NCBI GenBank assembly: GCA_963662615.2
Contig: CAXXSR010000002.1
Coordinates: 96,001-160,000 of the forward strand
DNA from: Dehalococcoidia bacterium
GTDB taxonomy: Bacteria > Chloroflexota > Dehalococcoidia > Bin125
Reading direction: 5' to 3'
Length of the DNA stretch: 64,000 bases
Shown: in pieces, positions 3,196 through 48,880 of the stretch
Layout of the letters: every line of letters begins with the position of its first letter
Position numbering within the stretch: position 1 is the stretch's first letter
Position numbers and translations under genes: made by a program
Notes under the pieces: generated by a model
What the model saw: the letters and a program-made list of their open reading frames with translations, nothing else
The model's database searches: none
Told to the model about the DNA's origin: nothing

Positions 3196-3370
3196 GCTCG
3201 CCGACCGCCGGAAGGCGCGGCAGCTTGACCGGGACCTGGCCGCTTCCTAGCCTCCTCCCGACCGCGCCCAGGAGCCTTGCGAGACCTCATGCGGGGAGAG
3301 CACCTGAATGCGATTCGTTATGCCCACATCCTTGGGGAGCCGATTGACCGCCCTTAGGGGCCGGCGCGCC
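3196..3370 (+). repeat. direct repeat copy 1 (promoter, leader and first codons of CSLREA gene)
   Basis: near-identical to 9348-9522 (offset 6152 bp). Confidence 0.9.
3225..3253 (+). promoter_or_regulatory. sigma70-type promoter of CSLREA gene 1
   Basis: TTGACC-N17-TAGCCT; identical copy at 9377-9405. Confidence 0.65.
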
Positions 3371-6241
3371 CGTCCACCCCTGGTGTTGGCCTCCGCCGCC
3401 GTGGTCGTGGCGGTGATTGCGGCCACGCTGGCACTGGTACTGACGCCCGGGACGGCCCACGGCGCCAACTTCACGGTCAATTGGCAGCCAGACGGGGTAG
3501 ACATCACCCCAGGCGACGGCATCTGCTCGGCCGGACTCCAAGGTTGCACGCTACGCGCGGCGGTCATGGAGGCGAACGCGCTCGACGGCGACGACACGAT
3601 CACGTTGCCTGCCGGCACCTACACGCTGACCATCGCGGGGACGGGCGAGAACGCCGCCGCCACCGGCGACCTCGACATCGCCGACCTCGCCAACAAGGTG
3701 ACCATCACCGGCGCTGGGGCCGCCAGCACGATCATCGACGGCGGCGGCATCGACCGCGTCTTTCAGGTCCTCGGTTTGAGCACGCTGGAACTCTCGGGCG
3801 TCACTGTCACCAACGGGAACGCCGGCGGCGGCGACGGGGGCGGCATCCGGGTCGGCGGCAGCCTGACGCTGACCAGCAGCAGGGTCAGCAACAGCACGGC
3901 CAGCGCCGGGGGCGGCATCTACGTTCAACCTTCCGGCGGCTTTCTCCAATTCGCCGGCTCGCTCACGCTGAATCTCAGCACCGTCGGCCCCAACAACAGC
4001 GCGACCTTCAGCGGCGGCGGCATCTGGAACGGCGGCTCCGCGACGCTCACAGACGGCGTCGTGGAAAACAACTTGGCGGGATTCGATGGGGGCGGCATCT
4101 TTAACAGTGGGACGCTGACCCTGATCCACACCACCCTCAGCGGGAACGCGACCAGTAGTGGAGACGGCGGCGGCATCCACAATGACGGCGGCGCCACGCT
4201 CACTCTGGACGACAGCGCCGTGGTGAGCAACACGGCGACGGCCGGTGACGGAGGCGGTATCAGCAACGTTGGGGCGCTGACGGTGAGCAACAGTAGCGTG
4301 AGTAACAACACCTCGACCAATGGCGTGGGCGGCGGCATCGACAACGCCGGGATGCTGACCCTCAGCAACACGACCGTTAGCGGCAACAGCACCACGGACC
4401 AGGGCGGCGGCATCTACAGCTCTGGCGCCAGCGCGGTGGTGGCGATGACAGGGGGCGCCGTTCAGGGCAACACGGCCGCGATCGCTGGCGGCGGTATCTG
4501 GAACGATGGCACCGTGACGCTGACCGGCAGTACAGTCAGCGGCAACACGACGAACGGACATGGCGGCGGCCTCCACAACGTAGGGGGCGCGAGCGCCACG
4601 CTGACGAACGCCACGGTCAGCAACAACACGGCGCCCGCCAGCGGTGGTGGCATCTACAACTCCGAGAGCGCTCTCAGCGTGGTGGACAGCACGTTCATCG
4701 GCAATCAAGCCGGGTTTTGCGGCGGCGCCATCCACAACATCGGCCCCACCGCGACGCTCGCCCTGACCCGCACGACGGTGAGCGGGAATACGGCAGGGGA
4801 TGATGGTGGCGGGGTTAGTAACGTCGTAGGCGCGATGGCGACGGTCACCGCCAGCACCATCAGTGGCAACACTGCTACCAGCACGGCAGGCGGCATTGAG
4901 AACGGGAGCGGCGCCTCGCTGACGCTGACGAACAGCACAATCAGCGGCAACACCACGACGGGGGCTGGGGGCGGCATCCTCAACGACAATAACGCCGCGT
5001 TGACGGTGCTCAACAGCACAATCAGCGGCAACATCGCCGGGGGCGTGGGGGGCGGCATCGCGCACAGCGGCGCCACGACCACGTTGAAGAACTCGATCGT
5101 GGCCGGGAACACCGCGGCCAACTGCGATGGCTCCATGCTCTCGTTCGACAACAACCTGGACAGCGACAACACGTGTAATTTGATCGCGCCGGGCGACCTC
5201 CCCGGCCTTGACCCGCTGCTGGGCCCGCTGGCGAGCAACGGCGGCCCCACCCAGACGCAGGCGTTGCTCGCGGGCAGCCCGGCGATCAACGCCGGCAACG
5301 ACGTGGGGGCGCCCCCAACCGATCAGCGCGGCTTCCCCCGGGTCGGCGTCAGCGACATCGGCGCGTTCGAGTTTCAAGGGCTCGACGCCGACGGCGACGG
5401 CTTCGACGACATCGCGGCGGGCGGGACCGACTGCGATGACGGCGACGCGACCATCTTCCCCGGCGCCACCGAGATCCCCTACGACGGCATCGACCAGGAC
5501 TGCGACGGCAGCGACCTGACCGACGTGGACAGAGACGGCTTCGAGGCCGACCAGGCCGTCGGCGGCACGCCCGACTGCGACGACACCGACGCGACCGTCT
5601 TCCCGGGCGCCACGGAGATCCTCGACGACGGCATTGACCAGGACTGCGACGGGGAGGACGCCATCAGTGAGCCGGAAGCGGTCCTGACGGCGACCTTCGC
5701 GCTGGTGGGCGGCTTCAACGCCATCGTCTTCCCCGGCGCGGATGACACGCCCATTGCGGACCTGGCCACCGCCATCGGCTCCATCACGGACGCCATCTTC
5801 CGCTTCGATGAGACGTCGCAGAGCTGGTTGGTGTATCGGCCCGACGTCGTGGTGCCGGGGTTGAATACGCTGGCCATGGCCAACCAGCGCGACGTCCTCT
5901 TTGTCCGTCTCGCCGCGGGCGGCGTGGCCACCTTGATGTGGGAGGACGTGCTGGCGGCCGGGCCGGTGAGCGTGGATCTGCCGCCGGGGTTCAGCTTCGT
6001 GGGCTTCACCGGCGCCGATGGGACGGCGGTGGCCGACCTGCTGGCGATGCTCCCGGCCGGGGTGGATGCGGCCTTCCTCTTCGCCGCGGAGGATCAGGAA
6101 TACGACGTCTTCCGGCGCGGCGAGCCGAGCTTCTTGAGCACGTTCACCTCCGCGGACCGGCTCGAGGCCCTGTTCATCCGCAACACGACGACCAGCACGG
6201 CGGTCCTCTCCTGGGAGCAGGTGGCCGCGGGCGGTCCCTGA
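3308..6241 (+). CDS. secreted CSLREA-domain / parallel beta-helix (GGGI-N repeat) / choice-of-anchor Q protein with MopE-like DCDD metal-binding repeats
   Basis: signal peptide ending [15 protein letters not shown], many GGGIxN repeats, [26 protein letters not shown], two [17 protein letters not shown] motifs. Confidence 0.9.
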
Positions 6242-21867: not shown

Positions 21868-22962
21868 TCAGATCGCCTCGGCGATGAGCGTGCCCAGGGT
21901 GGCGGTCTCGATCGCAGGCTCGCCTTCCGTGACGAGGTCGGCCGAGCGATGGCCCGCTTGCAGCACCTGTTCCACGGCGCGCTCGACGGCGGCTGCCTCA
22001 GGCTCCAGGCCGAGCGACAGGCGCAGCATCAGGGCGACGCTGAGGATCGCCGCGACGGGGTTGGCGACGCCCTTGCCGGCGATGTCGGGCGCGGTGCCAT
22101 GGATGGGTTCGTAGAGGCCCAGGTTCGTGCCCCCACCGCGACGGCGCCGTGCGCCCAGGCTGGCGCTGGGCAGCATGCCCATGGAGCCGACGAGCATGGA
22201 GGCTTCATCCGTGAGGATGTCGCCGAAGAGGTTCTCGGTGACGATGACGTCGAAGTCGGCGGGGCGGCGGATCAGCTGCATGGCGCAGGTGTCGACGAGG
22301 AGGTGCTCCAGCCGCACGTCGGCGAAGTCGCGGGCGACCTCCAGGGCGATCTCCCGCCAGAGGCGAGAGCTATCGAGGATGTTGGCCTTGTCGACGCTGG
22401 TGAGATGGCGTCGCCTGCCGCGGGCCAGCTCGAAGCCGAGGCGGAGGATGCGCTCGATCTCGCGCTCGCTGTATTTGAGGGTGTCGACGGCCTTGCGGCC
22501 GCGGCTGTCGCGCCAGCGCCGCTGGGGCTTGCCGAAGTAGATGCCGCCGGTGAGCTCGCGCAGGACGACCAGGTCCACACCCTCAACGATGTGGGCTTTG
22601 AGCGTGCTGCTGTCTGCCAGGAAGCCGAAGACTTTGACGGGGCGAATGTTGGCGAACAGGCCCAGCTCCTTGCGCAGGCCCAAGATGGCGTCCTCAGGCC
22701 GGGCCGTGGCTTGGGGGCCGTCCCACTTGGGGCCACCGACGGCGCCGAAGAGGACGGCGTCCTGACGGCGGCAGAGCTCGAGGTCCTCGGGTCGGAGGGC
22801 GACGCCATAGGCGTCGATGGCGCCGCCGCCGACGCGCGCCTCGGCGTAGTCGAAGGCGTGGCCGAAGCGTTGGGCGACGGCGTCCAGGACCTTGACGGCC
22901 TCGGCGATCACCTCGGGGCCGATGCCGTCGCCGGGGAGGAGGGCAATCTTGAAGGCGGCCAC
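21868..22962 (-). CDS. leuB: 3-isopropylmalate dehydrogenase
   Basis: [53 protein letters not shown]. Confidence 0.97.
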
Positions 22963-23063
22963 CGCTGGCTCCAGATCTCTGGGCTCAGTAGAGCGCGCCG
23001 GAGGCCTGGGGGGAAGGGATTCGGACGGGCTCAGTGTAGCACGCGGAGAGGGCAATTGGTTAC

Positions 23064-23092
23064 TTGACACACCTGACCGCATGTTCTAGCCT
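23064..23092 (+). promoter_or_regulatory. transposase promoter within IRL
   Basis: TTGACA-N17-TAGCCT, then AGGAG SD. Confidence 0.75.
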
Positions 23093-23114
23093 GCCTCCAG
23101 TTTAGGAGTCGGCC

Positions 23115-24104
23115 ATGAGCACCCCAGCGCCCAGCTACCTGGAAGTCCTGAAGTGGTCGGATGCCGAGTGCCGCGCCTACCTGGAGGCGCAACGCTGGCC
23201 CACCGGCCCCGCCTGCCCGAAGTGCGGGAACATCGGGGCGTGGACGATCACGCGCCGGTCCAAGACCAAGAACAAGGTGTCGCAGTTCTACTGCTGCAAG
23301 GCGTGCAAGCGGCAGTTCACTGCCACCGTGGGAACCATCTTCGAGGACAGCAAGATTCCGCTGTCCAAGTGGTTCGCGGCGATATACCTCATGTGTGAGT
23401 CCAAGAAGGGCGTGAGCGCCCACCAGCTCCACCGCCAGCTTGGGATTCAATACCGCTCGGCCTGGTACATGTGCCACCGCATCCGCGAGGCGATGCGGGA
23501 GAAGGGGCCGCGCCCGATACTGACCGGCGCGATTGAGGCGGACGAGACCTACGTTGGAGGCAAGGTGCGCGGCGCGCCGATGGCCCGCTCACGTCGCAAG
23601 GCGCGCAAGGGCCAAGCGTACGCCCTCGGGGACAAGGTCATCGTGTTCGGTCTGCTCCAGCGCGGCGGCGAAGCGCGCACGATAGTGATCCCCAACGTCA
23701 AGCACGCAACCGCGCGGGGGCGACTCGCCCGCCACATCGACTTCAGCAAGGCGAAGCTCTATACGGACGGCCACCCGGCCTATCGCGGGATACGGCACTT
23801 CCTGCCGCACGCTTACGTGGACCATGAGCGGGAGTACGTGAAGCGCGATGCCCCCGAAGTTCACACGCAGGGGATCGATGGCTATTGGAGCATCCTCAAG
23901 CGCGGGCTAACCGGCGTGTTTCACCACGTCGGGCCGGCCTACCTGCCCCAATACCTGCATGAGTTCGAGTACCGCTTCAATCGTCGTCAGATAACGGACG
24001 CGGAGCGGTTTCAGGCGCTGCTTGGGCAGGTGACTGGTCGGCTGGAGTGGTATCGGGAGCGTCCGGCGCTGGGGGGCGCTTCGGAGCCCGAATCAGCTTC
24101 TTGA
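23115..24104 (+). CDS. IS1595-family (ISXO2-like) transposase
   Basis: RWP..CPKCG..CKACKRQF zinc ribbon, SKKGVSAHQLHRQL HTH, EADETYVGG, YTDG, HTQGIDGYWSILKR, YLHEFEYRFN. Confidence 0.95.
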   Translation: MSTPAPSYLEVLKWSDAECRAYLEAQRWPTGPACPKCGNIGAWTITRRSKTKNKVSQFYCCKACKRQFTATVGTIFEDSKIPLSKWFAAIYLMCESKKGVSAHQLHRQLGIQYRSAWYMCHRIREAMREKGPRPILTGAIEADETYVGGKVRGAPMARSRRKARKGQAYALGDKVIVFGLLQRGGEARTIVIPNVKHATARGRLARHIDFSKAKLYTDGHPAYRGIRHFLPHAYVDHEREYVKRDAPEVHTQGIDGYWSILKRGLTGVFHHVGPAYLPQYLHEFEYRFNRRQITDAERFQALLGQVTGRLEWYRERPALGGASEPESAS

Positions 24105-24171
24105 TCGCGTCCGCGAAGTTCAGCGGGTGGAGCGAGACGCGGGTGTCCTGATGCTTCCCGTCGTGTGCCAT
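23977..24171 (-). CDS. small ORF convergent with and overlapping the transposase 3' end
   Basis: MAHDGKHQDTRVSLHPLNFADAIKKLIRAP; upstream minus-strand promoter at 24374-24402. Confidence 0.5.
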   Translation of the reverse strand: MAHDGKHQDTRVSLHPLNFADAIKKLIRAPKRPPAPDAPDTTPADQSPAQAAPETAPRPLSDDD

Positions 24172-24315
24172 AGCGCCTGATCAGTTCCTGCTCTCCAACG
24201 GACATGCCACGATATGACCGCGGTCACTACCGCGCAACCACTATATGTTGGGGTCCATCTTCATAAGGGGGTTATCTCCCTAGTAGAAAGCCCTAAACTG
24301 GCCCTTAACCAGAAC

Positions 24316-24528
24316 CGCCCGCTTGTGGCGGGCGACCGGCGGACTCACACGGCTGGGGACCACGACAATCCCTAGCTTACGCAGCCCGTCGATCCCCGTC
24401 AAGCGCGAGCTTTTGGCTATGTCTCGCCATTTTCCGGCGCAAGCCGGCTGGTCGTCTCCTACATGGTGGGAGGCGAAAACTGACCCGGAAGGTCGCCGCT
24501 CAGTGAGTGGGGCAAGCGACCTTCCGGG
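24316..24528 (+). ncRNA. candidate structured RNA inside the IS
   Basis: six consecutive hairpins, G-U pairs and a GCAA tetraloop that fold on the + strand. Confidence 0.5.
24374..24402 (-). promoter_or_regulatory. antisense sigma70-type promoter inside the IS
   Basis: TTGACG-N17-TAAGCT on the minus strand. Confidence 0.6.
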
Positions 24529-24661
24529 CCCCTGGAGGTGATATATGGCGCGATACCCCGTCGCGTCGATAGAACGGTAGGCCCCTCAGGGGCCAACGCT
24601 ACTACTGAACCTTGGCAAGGCCCAGGGCTCTGGATTGTACATAACTCAGCAAAGGAATGCT

Positions 24662-24970
24662 ATGCCTATCAACAGCGATCGCTACGCCTTCACCCCGGAA
24701 AACATCGAGCTGGCCCCGAACGACGCTGGCGTTTATCAGTTGGAAGACGCTGGCGGCATTACCTATATCGGGCGTGCGGCGGGACGGACTGTCACGATCC
24801 ATAGTCGTCTACGGGACCACCAGAGCGGGCGAGAAGGACCGTGCACTCAGGTAGCGACGCATTACCGCCGTGATGTGACCAATCAGGCCGCTGACCGAGA
24901 GGAGAAGCTGCTAGAGGAGCACTTACGGCAACACCGGCGGTTGCCCCGCTGCAACGATGTGATGCCGTAG
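24662..24970 (+). CDS. minimal GIY-YIG nuclease-like protein (102 aa), IS passenger
   Basis: APNDAGVYQL..ITYIGRA..SRLRDH..EEKLL..LPRCN matches the GIY-YIG/R/H/E/N layout; AAGGA SD. Confidence 0.75.
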   Translation: MPINSDRYAFTPENIELAPNDAGVYQLEDAGGITYIGRAAGRTVTIHSRLRDHQSGREGPCTQVATHYRRDVTNQAADREEKLLEEHLRQHRRLPRCNDVMP

Positions 24971-24976
24971 CTGGAC

Positions 24977-25207
24977 TCACTTGATCCAGGTTGCGCGACA
25001 GAGGCCGGTGAGGGCAGTACCTGAGCCGGCCTCTTCGCCATCTCGATCGAAAACAAACTCGCGATTGCCGAGGGACAGGTCGCCGTACACGCGCAGACGG
25101 CTCGTCCCGTCCTCAACAGTCTCGAACTGGAAGCTGAGGCCCGACACCGGGTCCTCGATCATCTGCTCCTTGACCGTCCACGGGCGGCCACCGGGCTTTA
25201 TCGGCAT
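24977..25207 (-). CDS. hypothetical protein (76 aa), IS passenger
   Basis: GAGGTG SD, beta-rich sequence, convergent with the GIY-YIG gene. Confidence 0.65.
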   Translation of the reverse strand: MPIKPGGRPWTVKEQMIEDPVSGLSFQFETVEDGTSRLRVYGDLSLGNREFVFDRDGEEAGSGTALTGLCRATWIK

Positions 25208-25500
25208 GACCCACCTCGCCCGTCCACACCCGCCGCGCCACTCAAACGTGAGCGGCTCCTATGGTCAAGACCACCACCACCGCGTTGACATCGCGTCTCA
25301 TCCATAGTACGTCCGTTCAGGTGTGTCTAATGCTCAATTACCCGGAGAGCGATATTACAACCGCTTTTGGCGTATCACCAGATGGCGGGTGGCTGAAACG
25401 GGGGGCTGGGGCCAGCAGATGGACAGGGTGAGGACAGGGGAGGGACACGGAGAGGCAGGCAGGGGACAGGGATCGGGCGGGGTCGGGACGGGGAGGGGAC

Positions 25501-25620
25501 AGGTCACTGCGTGCCGGGTCACTGCGTGACGGCCCGGTGGGGGATGGGTCACTGCGTGCCGGGTCACTGCGTGACAGCCCGCTGGGGGACGGGTCACTGC
25601 GTGACGGCCCGCTGGGGAAC
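25501..25620. repeat. 8 x 15-bp mosaic tandem array (GGGTCACTGCGTGMC and RGCCCGSTGGGGRAY units)
   Basis: read directly; order A'-A-B-A'-A-B-A-B. Confidence 0.9.
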
Positions 25621-25699
25621 GGCGATGGCTCCCTTACTCGTCTGTTCCGCTGCGGTCCGAGTTTAGCCATCCCTCCGAGATGGCTCGTTCGCGGGTGAC

Positions 25700-25864
25700 T
25701 CAACAGCCCGGATCGCCGTAGCGGCCGCAGCAGTTCTGGCGCCTGCGGGGGCGGTACGACCAGTTGACGAGCATGCGTTTGAGGTCAGCCGGGGAGCGGA
25801 CGCGGCGCATGTTCGTGACGGCGTCGCGGAGGGAGGGGCGCAGGCTGGGAGCGTCGTCGCACAT
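25700..25864 (-). CDS. small Cys-tailed protein (54 aa, ends CCGRYGDPGC)
   Basis: own translation MCDDAPSLRPSLRDAVTNMRRVRSPADLKRMLVNWSYRPRRRQNCCGRYGDPGC; below the ORF-track cutoff. Confidence 0.65.
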   Translation of the reverse strand: MCDDAPSLRPSLRDAVTNMRRVRSPADLKRMLVNWSYRPRRRQNCCGRYGDPGC

Positions 25865-26028
25865 GGGGTTGTTATTTCTCGGTTCGCCCTGCGACTTTTT
25901 CGCCCGCGCTCGCGACTCGTCTGGTCCCGCCCGGCGTGCGTGTCCGCTCGCGCCGGGGCTTGATGATCGGGGCGATGTCGGCGCCGTTCGCCCCTTCGAC
26001 AGGCTCCTTCTGCTACGCGAAGGACAGG

Positions 26029-26628
26029 TCAGGGTGAGCGGTGGGTCGTAGGCAGAAAGGGCGGGCGCTCGACTTCGAAGGCGTCGATGTGCGCTTCCTG
26101 CTCCAGCGTGAGGTCAATCCCGTCGAGACCGTCGAGGAGGGTGTGCTTGACGAAGGGGTCGATGTCGAAGGAGCGGGACCAGCCGTCGGGCGTGGCGACG
26201 GTCTGCGCGTCGAGGTTGACGGTGATGGCGGCGTCCGGGGTGTCGAGGGCGCGACGCATCAAGTGTTCCACGTCGGCGGGGGGCAGGGCGACGGTGAGGA
26301 GGCCCATCTTGGCGCTGTTGTTGCGGAAGATGTCGGCGAAGGTGGGCGCGATCACGGCCCTGACGCCCATCTGCTGGATGGCCCAGACGGCGTGCTCCCG
26401 CGAGGAGCCGCAGCCGAAGTTCGCGCCCGCCAGCAAGATGGAGGCGCCGGCGTACTGGGGCCGGTTGAGCACGAAGTCCGGGTCCTCCCGCCACGATTCG
26501 AAGACGAAGGCGCCGTAGCCGGTGCGCTCGATGCGCTTGAGGTATTTGGCGGGGATGATCTGGTCGGTGTCGACGTCGGCGCGGTCGAGGGGGATGGCGT
26601 GGCCGGTGACGGTCGAAACGGGGTCCAT
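26029..26628 (-). CDS. leuD: 3-isopropylmalate dehydratase small subunit
   Basis: DVDTDQIIP, NFGCGSSREHA, FADIFRNN. Confidence 0.97.
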   Translation of the reverse strand: MDPVSTVTGHAIPLDRADVDTDQIIPAKYLKRIERTGYGAFVFESWREDPDFVLNRPQYAGASILLAGANFGCGSSREHAVWAIQQMGVRAVIAPTFADIFRNNSAKMGLLTVALPPADVEHLMRRALDTPDAAITVNLDAQTVATPDGWSRSFDIDPFVKHTLLDGLDGIDLTLEQEAHIDAFEVERPPFLPTTHRSP

Positions 26629-26638
26629 ATGGCTACTC

Positions 26639-26893
26639 CTAGCCGCTTGCAGCGATACCGGATTCATCGACGCGGAGGGACCAGGTGAAGGCGCGCCGCG
26701 GCTCCGGCTCCTCCCCCAGCTCCCGGCGCGTCGCCAGCCAAGCAGCGATCGCCTCGTGAAGGTGCGTGCGCAGCTCGTCCAACGTCTCAGCCTGCGCGAC
26801 GCAGCCGGGCAGGTCAGTTACCTCGGCCCAGTAGCCACCCTCCTCCGCCTCGTACACGGCGACGGTGTAGGCGGTGTCATCGTTCGTCGTCAT
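26639..26893 (-). CDS. HicB-family antitoxin
   Basis: EEGGYWAEVTDLPGCVAQAETLDEL..EAI. Confidence 0.85.
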   Translation of the reverse strand: MTTNDDTAYTVAVYEAEEGGYWAEVTDLPGCVAQAETLDELRTHLHEAIAAWLATRRELGEEPEPRRAFTWSLRVDESGIAASG

Positions 26894-32257: not shown

Positions 32258-32575
32258 TCAGGGTGAACGGAGGGGGCCTCACCCCCCGGCCCCCTCTCCA
32301 TCGGTGAGCGATGGAGAGGGGGGGTGCGTTCGTCCTTCGACAAGCTCCTTCCGCGGGGGGAGGGACAGGTCAGGACGAACGGGCGGAGTGGCCCTTCGAC
32401 CCTTCGACAGGCTCAGGGCAGGCAGGCTCAGGACGAACGGGCGAGGTGACCCTTCGACAAGCTCAGGGTGAGCGGAGGACCTCACCCCCGGCCCCCTCTC
32501 CATCCTTCCTCGGAAGGATGGAGAGGGGGAGTGTTCGTCCTTCGACCCTTCGACGGACTAGTCGCTGGTGAACGG
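32258..32575. repeat. composite REP-like cluster (CCTTCGACAAGCTCAGG family and CCCCCTCTCCAT..ATGGAGAGGGGG family)
   Basis: multiple nested copies; the same families occur at 21608, 25986, 28586, 36411, 40903 and 48598. Confidence 0.88.
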
Positions 32576-40902: not shown

Positions 40903-41040
40903 GCGAACGGAAGGGACCCCACCCCCCGGCCCCCTCTCCATCGGTAAGCGATGGAGAGGGGGGGTTCGTCCTTCGACAAGCTCAGGATGAACGGGGCGGG
41001 CCTGCGGCGAGCTCCTTCGGCGGGCTGAGGGCGAACGGCT
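40903..41040. repeat. composite REP-like cluster
   Basis: CCCCCTCTCCATCG..CGATGGAGAGGGGG followed by GTTCGTCCTTCGACAAGCTCAGGATGAACGG. Confidence 0.85.
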
Positions 41041-48597: not shown

Positions 48598-48880
48598 CGA
48601 CCTCACCCCCCGGCCCCCTCTCCATTCTTCCTGTGGAAGGATGGAGAGGGGGAGCAGAGGCGAGTTCGTCGGTTCGCCCTTCGACAGGCTCAGGACGAAC
48701 GGGATACAGCGCCCTTCGACCCTTCGGCCCTTCGGCAAGCTCAGGACAGGCAGCGCGACCTCACCCCCCGGCCCCCTCTCCATGTCACAGCGATGGAGAG
48801 GGGGAGCAGAGCCCCATTCGCCCGTTCGCCCTTCGACAGGCTCCCTTCGACTCCGCTCAGGACGGGCAGGGTGAGCGGGG
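48598..48880. repeat. composite REP-like cluster
   Basis: two CCCCCTCTCCAT..ATGGAGAGGGGG hairpins plus nested CCTTCGAC(A/G)..CTCAGG units. Confidence 0.88.

Follow-up and report, generated by a model that had tools for sequence, protein, structure and literature searches.

Lineage-specific hairpins in a non-coding spacer between the transposase and cargo genes of an IS1595-family insertion sequence from a Dehalococcoidia bacterium

Organisation of the element

The stretch of Dehalococcoidia DNA analysed here (64,000 nt, referred to as the window) contains an insertion sequence (IS) that carries passenger genes. Its order is transposase, antisense ORF, spacer, DUF7508 gene and convergent 76-aa ORF, with the following features:

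23051..25342, + strand: cargo-carrying IS1595-family element, approximately 2292 bp (2.29 kb)
23115..24104, + strand: IS1595-family DDE transposase, 329 aa (Pfam DDE_Tnp_IS1595, E 5.7e-34; Zn_ribbon_IS1595, E 2.5e-11; NCBIfam transpos_IS1595, E 2.3e-63)
23977..24171, - strand: 64-aa ORF overlapping the 3' end of the transposase gene in antisense and bearing the motif [IV]SLxxLxF/IxxAxKxL
24172..24661: non-coding spacer of 490 nt separating the antisense ORF from the nuclease gene
24662..24970, + strand: passenger gene for a 102-aa single-domain GIY-YIG-like protein (Pfam DUF7508, E 3.3e-06; GIY-YIG, E 0.0023)
24977..25207, - strand: 76-aa passenger ORF, convergent to the nuclease gene, with a 45% identical homologue at the same position in the related element L158

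The transposase possesses a DDE_Tnp_IS1595 catalytic domain together with an N-terminal zinc ribbon, the combination by which membership of the IS1595 family is recognised. The element is bounded by terminal inverted repeats (23050-88 and 25305-43; 39 nt, 74% complementary) and is flanked by a 7-bp perfect direct repeat, CGGAGAG (23044-50 and 25343-49), which was found by eye and can also be read, again by eye, as 8 bp with one mismatch. Target-site duplications of the IS1595 family are typically 8 bp. These boundaries confirm the placing of the hairpins inside an IS in the preliminary description of this DNA. The element is single-copy, giving one match only in its own genome, and it is poorer in GC than its flanks. 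Its left end is near-identical to that of a related element in locus L029.

The IS lies between two - strand genes, one for a protein with an Aconitase_C domain (LeuD-type, 26029-26667) and one for a protein with an Iso_dh domain (LeuB-type, 21868-23082), with an HMGL-like/LeuA_dimer gene downstream. As the start of the longest LeuB-type ORF falls within the left end of the IS, the insertion is close to the true start of the LeuB-type gene and may be polar on it. Just beyond the right end of the IS, the region 25400-25550 is strongly G-skewed (GC 0.74, GC skew up to 0.6).

The 64-aa antisense ORF had no match in Pfam, NCBIfam, PADLOC or PHROGs. Matches to it on the same relative strand were identified by tblastn in five related loci (L058, L059, L029, L061 and L062), and visual inspection of the L158 reverse complement showed its motif there as well. 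The motif is thus kept in all of the close relatives, while more distant IS1595 loci encode it on the + strand, directly downstream of the transposase. The ORF may encode an accessory protein, so far unrecognised, of this subgroup of IS, and is possibly the lead of more general relevance at this locus.

The best Pfam family for the 102-aa passenger protein is DUF7508 and not the general GIY-YIG model. For DUF7508, a family to which no function is assigned, the literature search found no paper. A profile built from six homologues matches the N-terminal domain of UvrC (1yd6, E 6e-4), and six sequences all keep the GxY, YxG, R, H and PRCN positions unchanged. The 76-aa ORF had no family match in domain and family searches.

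Hairpins of the spacer

The hairpins lie between the stop codon of the transposase gene (24104) and the start of the cargo gene (24662), on the same strand as both, and the ORFs inside the 490-nt spacer have no Pfam match. Each stem was folded singly on each strand and compared with 200 dinucleotide shuffles (energies in kcal/mol; fractions are shuffles as good):

24316-22/24328-34, + strand: h1, 7 perfect bp (7-8 bp); -15.9 on the + strand and -15.1 on the - strand, 0/200 on either
24351-59/24369-77, + strand: h2, 9 bp with two G-U pairs; -13.5 on the + strand (1/200) and -10.8 on the - strand (7/200)
24405-09/24423-27, + strand: h3, 5 bp with a 13-nt loop; -6.7, z -0.37, 71/200
24434-47, + strand: h4, CCGGC-GCAA-GCCGG, 5 bp with a GNRA loop on the + strand; -9.6 on the + strand (5/200) and -9.5 on the - strand (6/200)
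24452-62/24466-76, + strand: h5, 11 bp with two G-U pairs; -16.8 on the + strand (0/200) and -7.9 on the - strand (0/200)
24484-96/24516-28, + strand: h6, perfect 13 bp with a 4-bp inner stem (one G-U pair); -33.1 on the + strand and -33.5 on the - strand, 0/200 on either
24534..24580, + strand: Shine-Dalgarno sequence GGAGG (24534-38) and 11-codon mini-ORF (24545-24580), read from the sequence
24547..24567, + strand: hairpin A, an 8-bp stem that includes two G-U pairs and begins in the start codon of the mini-ORF
24580..24594, + strand: hairpin B, GGCCCC-UCA-GGGGCC, 68-82 nt upstream of the nuclease start

All six stems that had been described (h1 to h6) were present on reading the sequence, and h6 was also recovered in an inverted-repeat search. 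Five of the six are far more stable than shuffles, whereas the stability of h3 is not better than chance; the block as a whole also folds better than its shuffles. The stems are unique in the genome: no second genomic copy of any of them was found, the search returning self-matches and chance words of 10-14 nt. Perfect stems of at least 13 bp, of which h6 is one, number 73 in the 2.66-Mb genome. Since such stems are expected only two to three times per genome in Markov-1 simulations, h6 alone is unlikely to have arisen by chance.

The 261-nt block folds with -123.9 kcal/mol on the + strand (z -3.30; 1/200 shuffles as good) and -121.9 kcal/mol on the - strand (z -2.63; 2/200), and 150-nt windows over 24405-24629 reach z values of about -3.9 to -4.0 on both strands. 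A 222-nt block was compared with 700 random windows of the same genome, GC-corrected by regression; values as low occurred in 2/700 (+ strand) and 4/700 (- strand). The + strand thus falls in the lowest 0.3% of these windows, a tail value that is partly a look-elsewhere effect, as the block was picked as the most hairpin-rich spot of the 64-kb window.

Strand specificity of the block is suggested. Stems h2 and h5 and hairpin A favour the + strand by 2.7, 8.9 and approximately 6 kcal/mol, respectively, as does every asymmetric stem, h5 being the most asymmetric; for the region of hairpin A (24543-24597) the values are -24.8 kcal/mol (z -3.1) on the + strand and -18.9 kcal/mol (z -0.16) on the - strand. 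The preliminary description had held that the G-U pairs and the GNRA loop work on the + strand alone. This stands for h2 and h5, which are weaker on the - strand, but not for h1, h4 and h6, which are equally stable on both. The strand difference of the whole block (5.1 kcal/mol) is within noise, since it was matched or exceeded in 73% of 300 random windows.

No terminator-like site was found on the + strand of the element, and no U-tract follows any + strand stem, so an intrinsic terminator was rejected as an explanation. Stem h1 was called terminator-like on the - strand only, and the count of terminator-like sites was two against 1.2 expected from shuffles. Neither strand of the element gave a promoter-like site.

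Searches for known RNA and repeat families

That the structure resembled no recognised riboswitch, as the preliminary description had remarked, agrees with the scan of the window with Rfam 15, where three tRNAs were the only matches at the gathering threshold. With relaxed thresholds, six matches were obtained in the region 24000-24800, all with E values of 3.9-7.7 and scores of 8.5-16.3 bits against thresholds of 35-100. A riboswitch is not supported: the downstream gene encodes a GIY-YIG-like IS passenger not tied to the metabolism or transport of a ligand, and the only homologous leader, that of L158, could not be aligned and gave no model match, a comparison of two sequences that is weak evidence. 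Among the papers listed by the literature searches, none links IS1595 with structured or non-coding RNA or with this nuclease family.

A REP or other dispersed hairpin repeat, or a MITE, was likewise rejected, as the stems have no second copies and the REP-like family of the genome differs in sequence. Members of that family possess a constant 5' flank, a 12-bp stem (CCCCCTCTCCAT / ATGGAGAGGGGG) and a variable loop. In the window they are located at 32290-32322, 32492-32529, 40930-40962, 48614-48652 and 48772-48804, and they make up five of the eleven perfect hairpins with a stem of at least 11 bp.

Related elements

DNA homologues of the spacer were found in none of 60 related genomes. Plasmid matches amounted to 35 records, and the 20 among the matches listed cover the transposase part only. 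Among 134 loci taken via the transposase or the nuclease, a single match of 43 nt was found, in L029 and within the antisense-ORF part, and nhmmer gave none. Near-identical DNA is carried by sequencing runs X10, X12, X13 and X17 (several bins being uncovered in the last three): record 7 of X10 spans 23486-25557 with 15 differences and record 29 of X17 spans 24364-24514 with one. Among the runs listed for this DNA none is of RNA, which carries no information on expression.

The best relatives of the transposase show 57% identity (401 genomes of the phylum) and 58% identity (metagenome contigs), and relatives at this level carry other cargo. Homologues of the DUF7508 nuclease among 401 genomes of the class were found in G578 (54% identity) and then at 43% and 38%. 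A peptide-pattern search of the genome collection yielded two real homologues, neither in an IS. No further homologues were detected in 101 relatives of G578 or in 401 genomes of the phylum, and a six-sequence profile gave none in viral contigs; ten DUF7508 homologues at 50-63% identity are present in public data, one of them on 13 contigs of up to 10 kb. The more distant genes (43% and 38%) lie outside IS, with upstream regions of 122 and 187 nt and ordinary promoters.

The sole element found with the same cargo is L158, in G578. Its transposase, nuclease and 76-aa ORF are 47%, 54% and 45% identical to those described here, and 588 nt precede its nuclease gene, compared with 490 nt here. L158 also encodes two extra passenger ORFs of 174 and 88 aa on the minus strand (3221-3909 of its reverse complement); the 174-aa protein has a 38% identical homologue elsewhere in the present genome (C2:649695-650195). 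A decayed gene in the spacer was rejected, as tblastn showed no trace of this extra cargo and no small ORF is common to the two spacers.

The two spacers do not align, their best local score being equalled in 86/200 shuffles, and windows of the L158 spacer on the + strand are not unusually structured (z between +4.4 and -1.5). The covariance model built from h3-h6 had no match at the equivalent place of L158, and in G000, G578 and G394 it gave the self-match only. Across 16 loci its best matches lay outside the equivalent place (E 0.014-0.015), and the L029 spacer gave weak matches on both strands (E 0.09 and 0.47). As the L158 spacer is unalignable, unremarkable in its folding and without a model match, the six stems are not conserved in the single comparison available. 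With one related element lacking them, the hairpins look like local regulatory or neutral structure and not like a new RNA gene.

Nearer to the nuclease gene, outside 24316..24528, the two elements share a layout, which is known from these two sequences and was noticed post hoc (positions relative to the nuclease start):

Mini-ORF start after a Shine-Dalgarno sequence: -117 here, -112 in L158
Hairpin just after the mini-ORF start, of different sequence in each: -115..-95 here (8 bp), -104..-88 in L158 (7 bp)
GGCCCC/GGGGCC hairpin B: -82..-68 here (UCA loop), -76..-61 in L158 (UUCG loop on the + strand)

The peptides of the two mini-ORFs are not alike. RNAalifold on the two proximal leaders recovered hairpin B alone, and hairpin A was misaligned by MAFFT. 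A sigma-70-like site (TTGCAA-18-TAGAAT, 9/12) was identified in L158 approximately 380-410 nt upstream of the nuclease gene; the same scan finds none here. Together, the shared proximal layout and this site support, from two sequences, a long leader with a constrained proximal part. Judged by the two sequences, comparative support is limited to the final ~130 nt upstream of the nuclease gene, and the six stems have none.

Interpretation of the hairpins

The hairpins are real and lineage-specific; the spacer that holds them is non-coding and belongs to an IS1595-family element with cargo. Our tentative explanation is that they are cis-acting stem-loops belonging to a long leader of the cargo gene, or an insulator between transposase and cargo. 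On a + strand transcript, where they would act in cis, the stems would make up the folded portion of a leader of ~350 nt preceding the GIY-YIG passenger gene. They would also block read-through from the transposase gene or slow it down, leaving the nuclease to be expressed from its own signals. We infer transcription of the + strand, formation of the hairpins in RNA and an effect on termination, stability or translation.

Several findings point in this direction. The block reaches z -3.30, 2/700 windows are as low and five stems are at 0-5/200 shuffles; the block is positioned between co-directional genes; the asymmetric stems all favour the + strand; and stable loop types occur in h4 (GNRA) and in hairpin B of L158 (UUCG). 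L158 keeps a long spacer before the same gene, the proximal layout is common to both and the spacer has no conserved coding sequence. Against a leader or insulator, the six stems have no L158 counterpart, the - strand folds almost as well, neither a promoter nor a + strand terminator-like site was identified and the distant DUF7508 genes have short upstream regions. The proximal likeness rests on n=2 and was noticed post hoc, and the region was picked as the most hairpin-rich of 64 kb.

It is also possible, if rather doubtful, that the stems have no function and are neutral palindromes, produced for example by template-switch mutation in a GC-rich spacer tolerant of change and picked out here as the most hairpin-rich spot of the window. 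Their absence from the only same-cargo relative, the about equal folding of the two strands, the chance level of h3 and the lack of an Rfam match, a promoter and a + strand terminator signal are in keeping with it; the 0.3% tail is approximately what the most extreme among some 580 window-strands of 64 kb would give. However, single stems are equalled in 0-1/200 shuffles, and the perfect 13-bp stem, expected two to three times in 2.66 Mb (Markov-1), occurs beside stems of 11, 9 and 7 bp. A spacer of ~500-600 nt has moreover persisted while the proteins diverged to 45-54% identity, which is unexpected for dispensable DNA.

By analogy with the Ssn nucleases, the hairpins might instead act at the level of DNA, as single-stranded sites for the adjoining single-domain GIY-YIG nuclease, an explanation that we consider unlikely. 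According to Chenal et al. 2025 (PMC11893778), the ssDNA nuclease SsnA has 94 aa and a single GIY-YIG domain, the genes of this family usually lie next to hairpin targets of their own (NTS/SRM repeats) and 71% of Ssn gene regions carry the motif. The neighbour of the hairpins is likewise a small (102-aa) single-domain GIY-YIG-like protein with conserved catalytic positions, and h1, h4 and h6 are perfect palindromes of the same stability on both strands. An Ssn/SRM system as such was rejected, as the SRM pattern given in the Methods of that study has no match in the IS or in L158 and occurs 26 times in the genome against 29-39 in simulations. The stems themselves have neither a common motif nor another genomic copy; L158 possesses the nuclease without these hairpins; and the best Pfam family of the protein is DUF7508 and not the general GIY-YIG model. 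The clade of the Ssn nucleases is cd10448.

Improbable to the same degree is a stand-alone structured non-coding RNA of ~230-300 nt, carried as cargo of the IS; it would be trans-acting, with the transposase mRNA as a possible target or the nuclease as a possible partner. The dense stems, the GNRA loop and the G-U pairs of the + strand would suit such an RNA, as would two complementarities, one of 12 nt (24324-35) to the coding region of the transposase and a perfect one of 10 nt (24292-301) to 23097-106, before the transposase start and including its likely Shine-Dalgarno sequence. These were reached by 12/300 and 13/300 shuffles, respectively, but the p values of ~0.04 come from four tests and are lost on correction, and the L158 spacer shows no complementarity of at least 8 nt to its transposase leader. 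Nor was an Rfam family, promoter, terminator or conservation found for such an RNA, and the literature search found nothing relevant on IS1595 and non-coding RNA. A guide RNA was rejected, its complementarity to the IS ends or transposase being marginal here and not repeated in L158. The selection on RNA that the preliminary description had proposed is favoured by folding that beats shuffles and by the + strand preference of h2, h5 and hairpin A; the missing Rfam family, the nearly equal folding of the - strand and the lack of an L158 counterpart speak against it.

Most improbable is a combination of these, namely a lineage-specific structured RNA or ssDNA hairpin array (~230-300 nt) that works with the GIY-YIG nuclease, as its recognition substrate or as a regulator also touching the ribosome-binding site of the transposase by way of the 10-nt complementarity (24292-301); if true, it would represent a cargo module of nuclease plus hairpins that a DDE transposon spreads, Ssn/NTS-like with another motif and unrelated to known guide RNAs.

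Comparison with known systems

The IS1595 family includes passenger-carrying ('transporter') IS, and ISfinder recognises subgroups with passenger genes. Like these, the present element combines a DDE transposase containing a zinc ribbon with inverted repeats, a short putative target duplication and downstream passengers, and among its relatives the backbone, including the small antisense ORF, is kept while the cargo is swapped. It differs in its structured spacer, none having been described in the literature searched.

RNAs encoded by IS include the bridge RNA of IS110, the omega RNA of IS200/IS605 and RNA-OUT of IS10. The spacer resembles these in being a non-coding, foldable sequence within an insertion sequence. 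In contrast to them, it accompanies a DDE transposase of another family, its complementarity to the IS ends or the transposase mRNA is at chance level after correction and the region is not conserved in relatives.

A cis-acting leader or insulator, our tentative choice, has its counterparts in structured 5' leaders and intergenic stem-loops of bacterial mRNAs, stabilising 5' hairpins among them, which likewise place GC-rich stems between co-directional genes, and in leaders with upstream-ORF attenuators, where a short ORF with a strong Shine-Dalgarno sequence and two hairpins precede the gene. Unlike those of intrinsic terminators, the + strand stems of the block are followed by no U-tract.

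With the Ssn/SRM systems the locus shares a small single-domain GIY-YIG protein beside hairpin-forming DNA. It differs from them in having no SRM motif (none in 22500-26000, none in L158), no enrichment in the genome, hairpins that are unlike one another and a protein of the DUF7508 family. If the hairpins are those of an ordinary leader or insulator, the locus is one more annotated cargo-carrying IS1595 element, with a passenger nuclease perhaps shielded from transcription of the transposase gene. If they are a substrate or partner of the DUF7508 protein, a transposon-borne nuclease-plus-hairpin module would extend the recently described Ssn principle.
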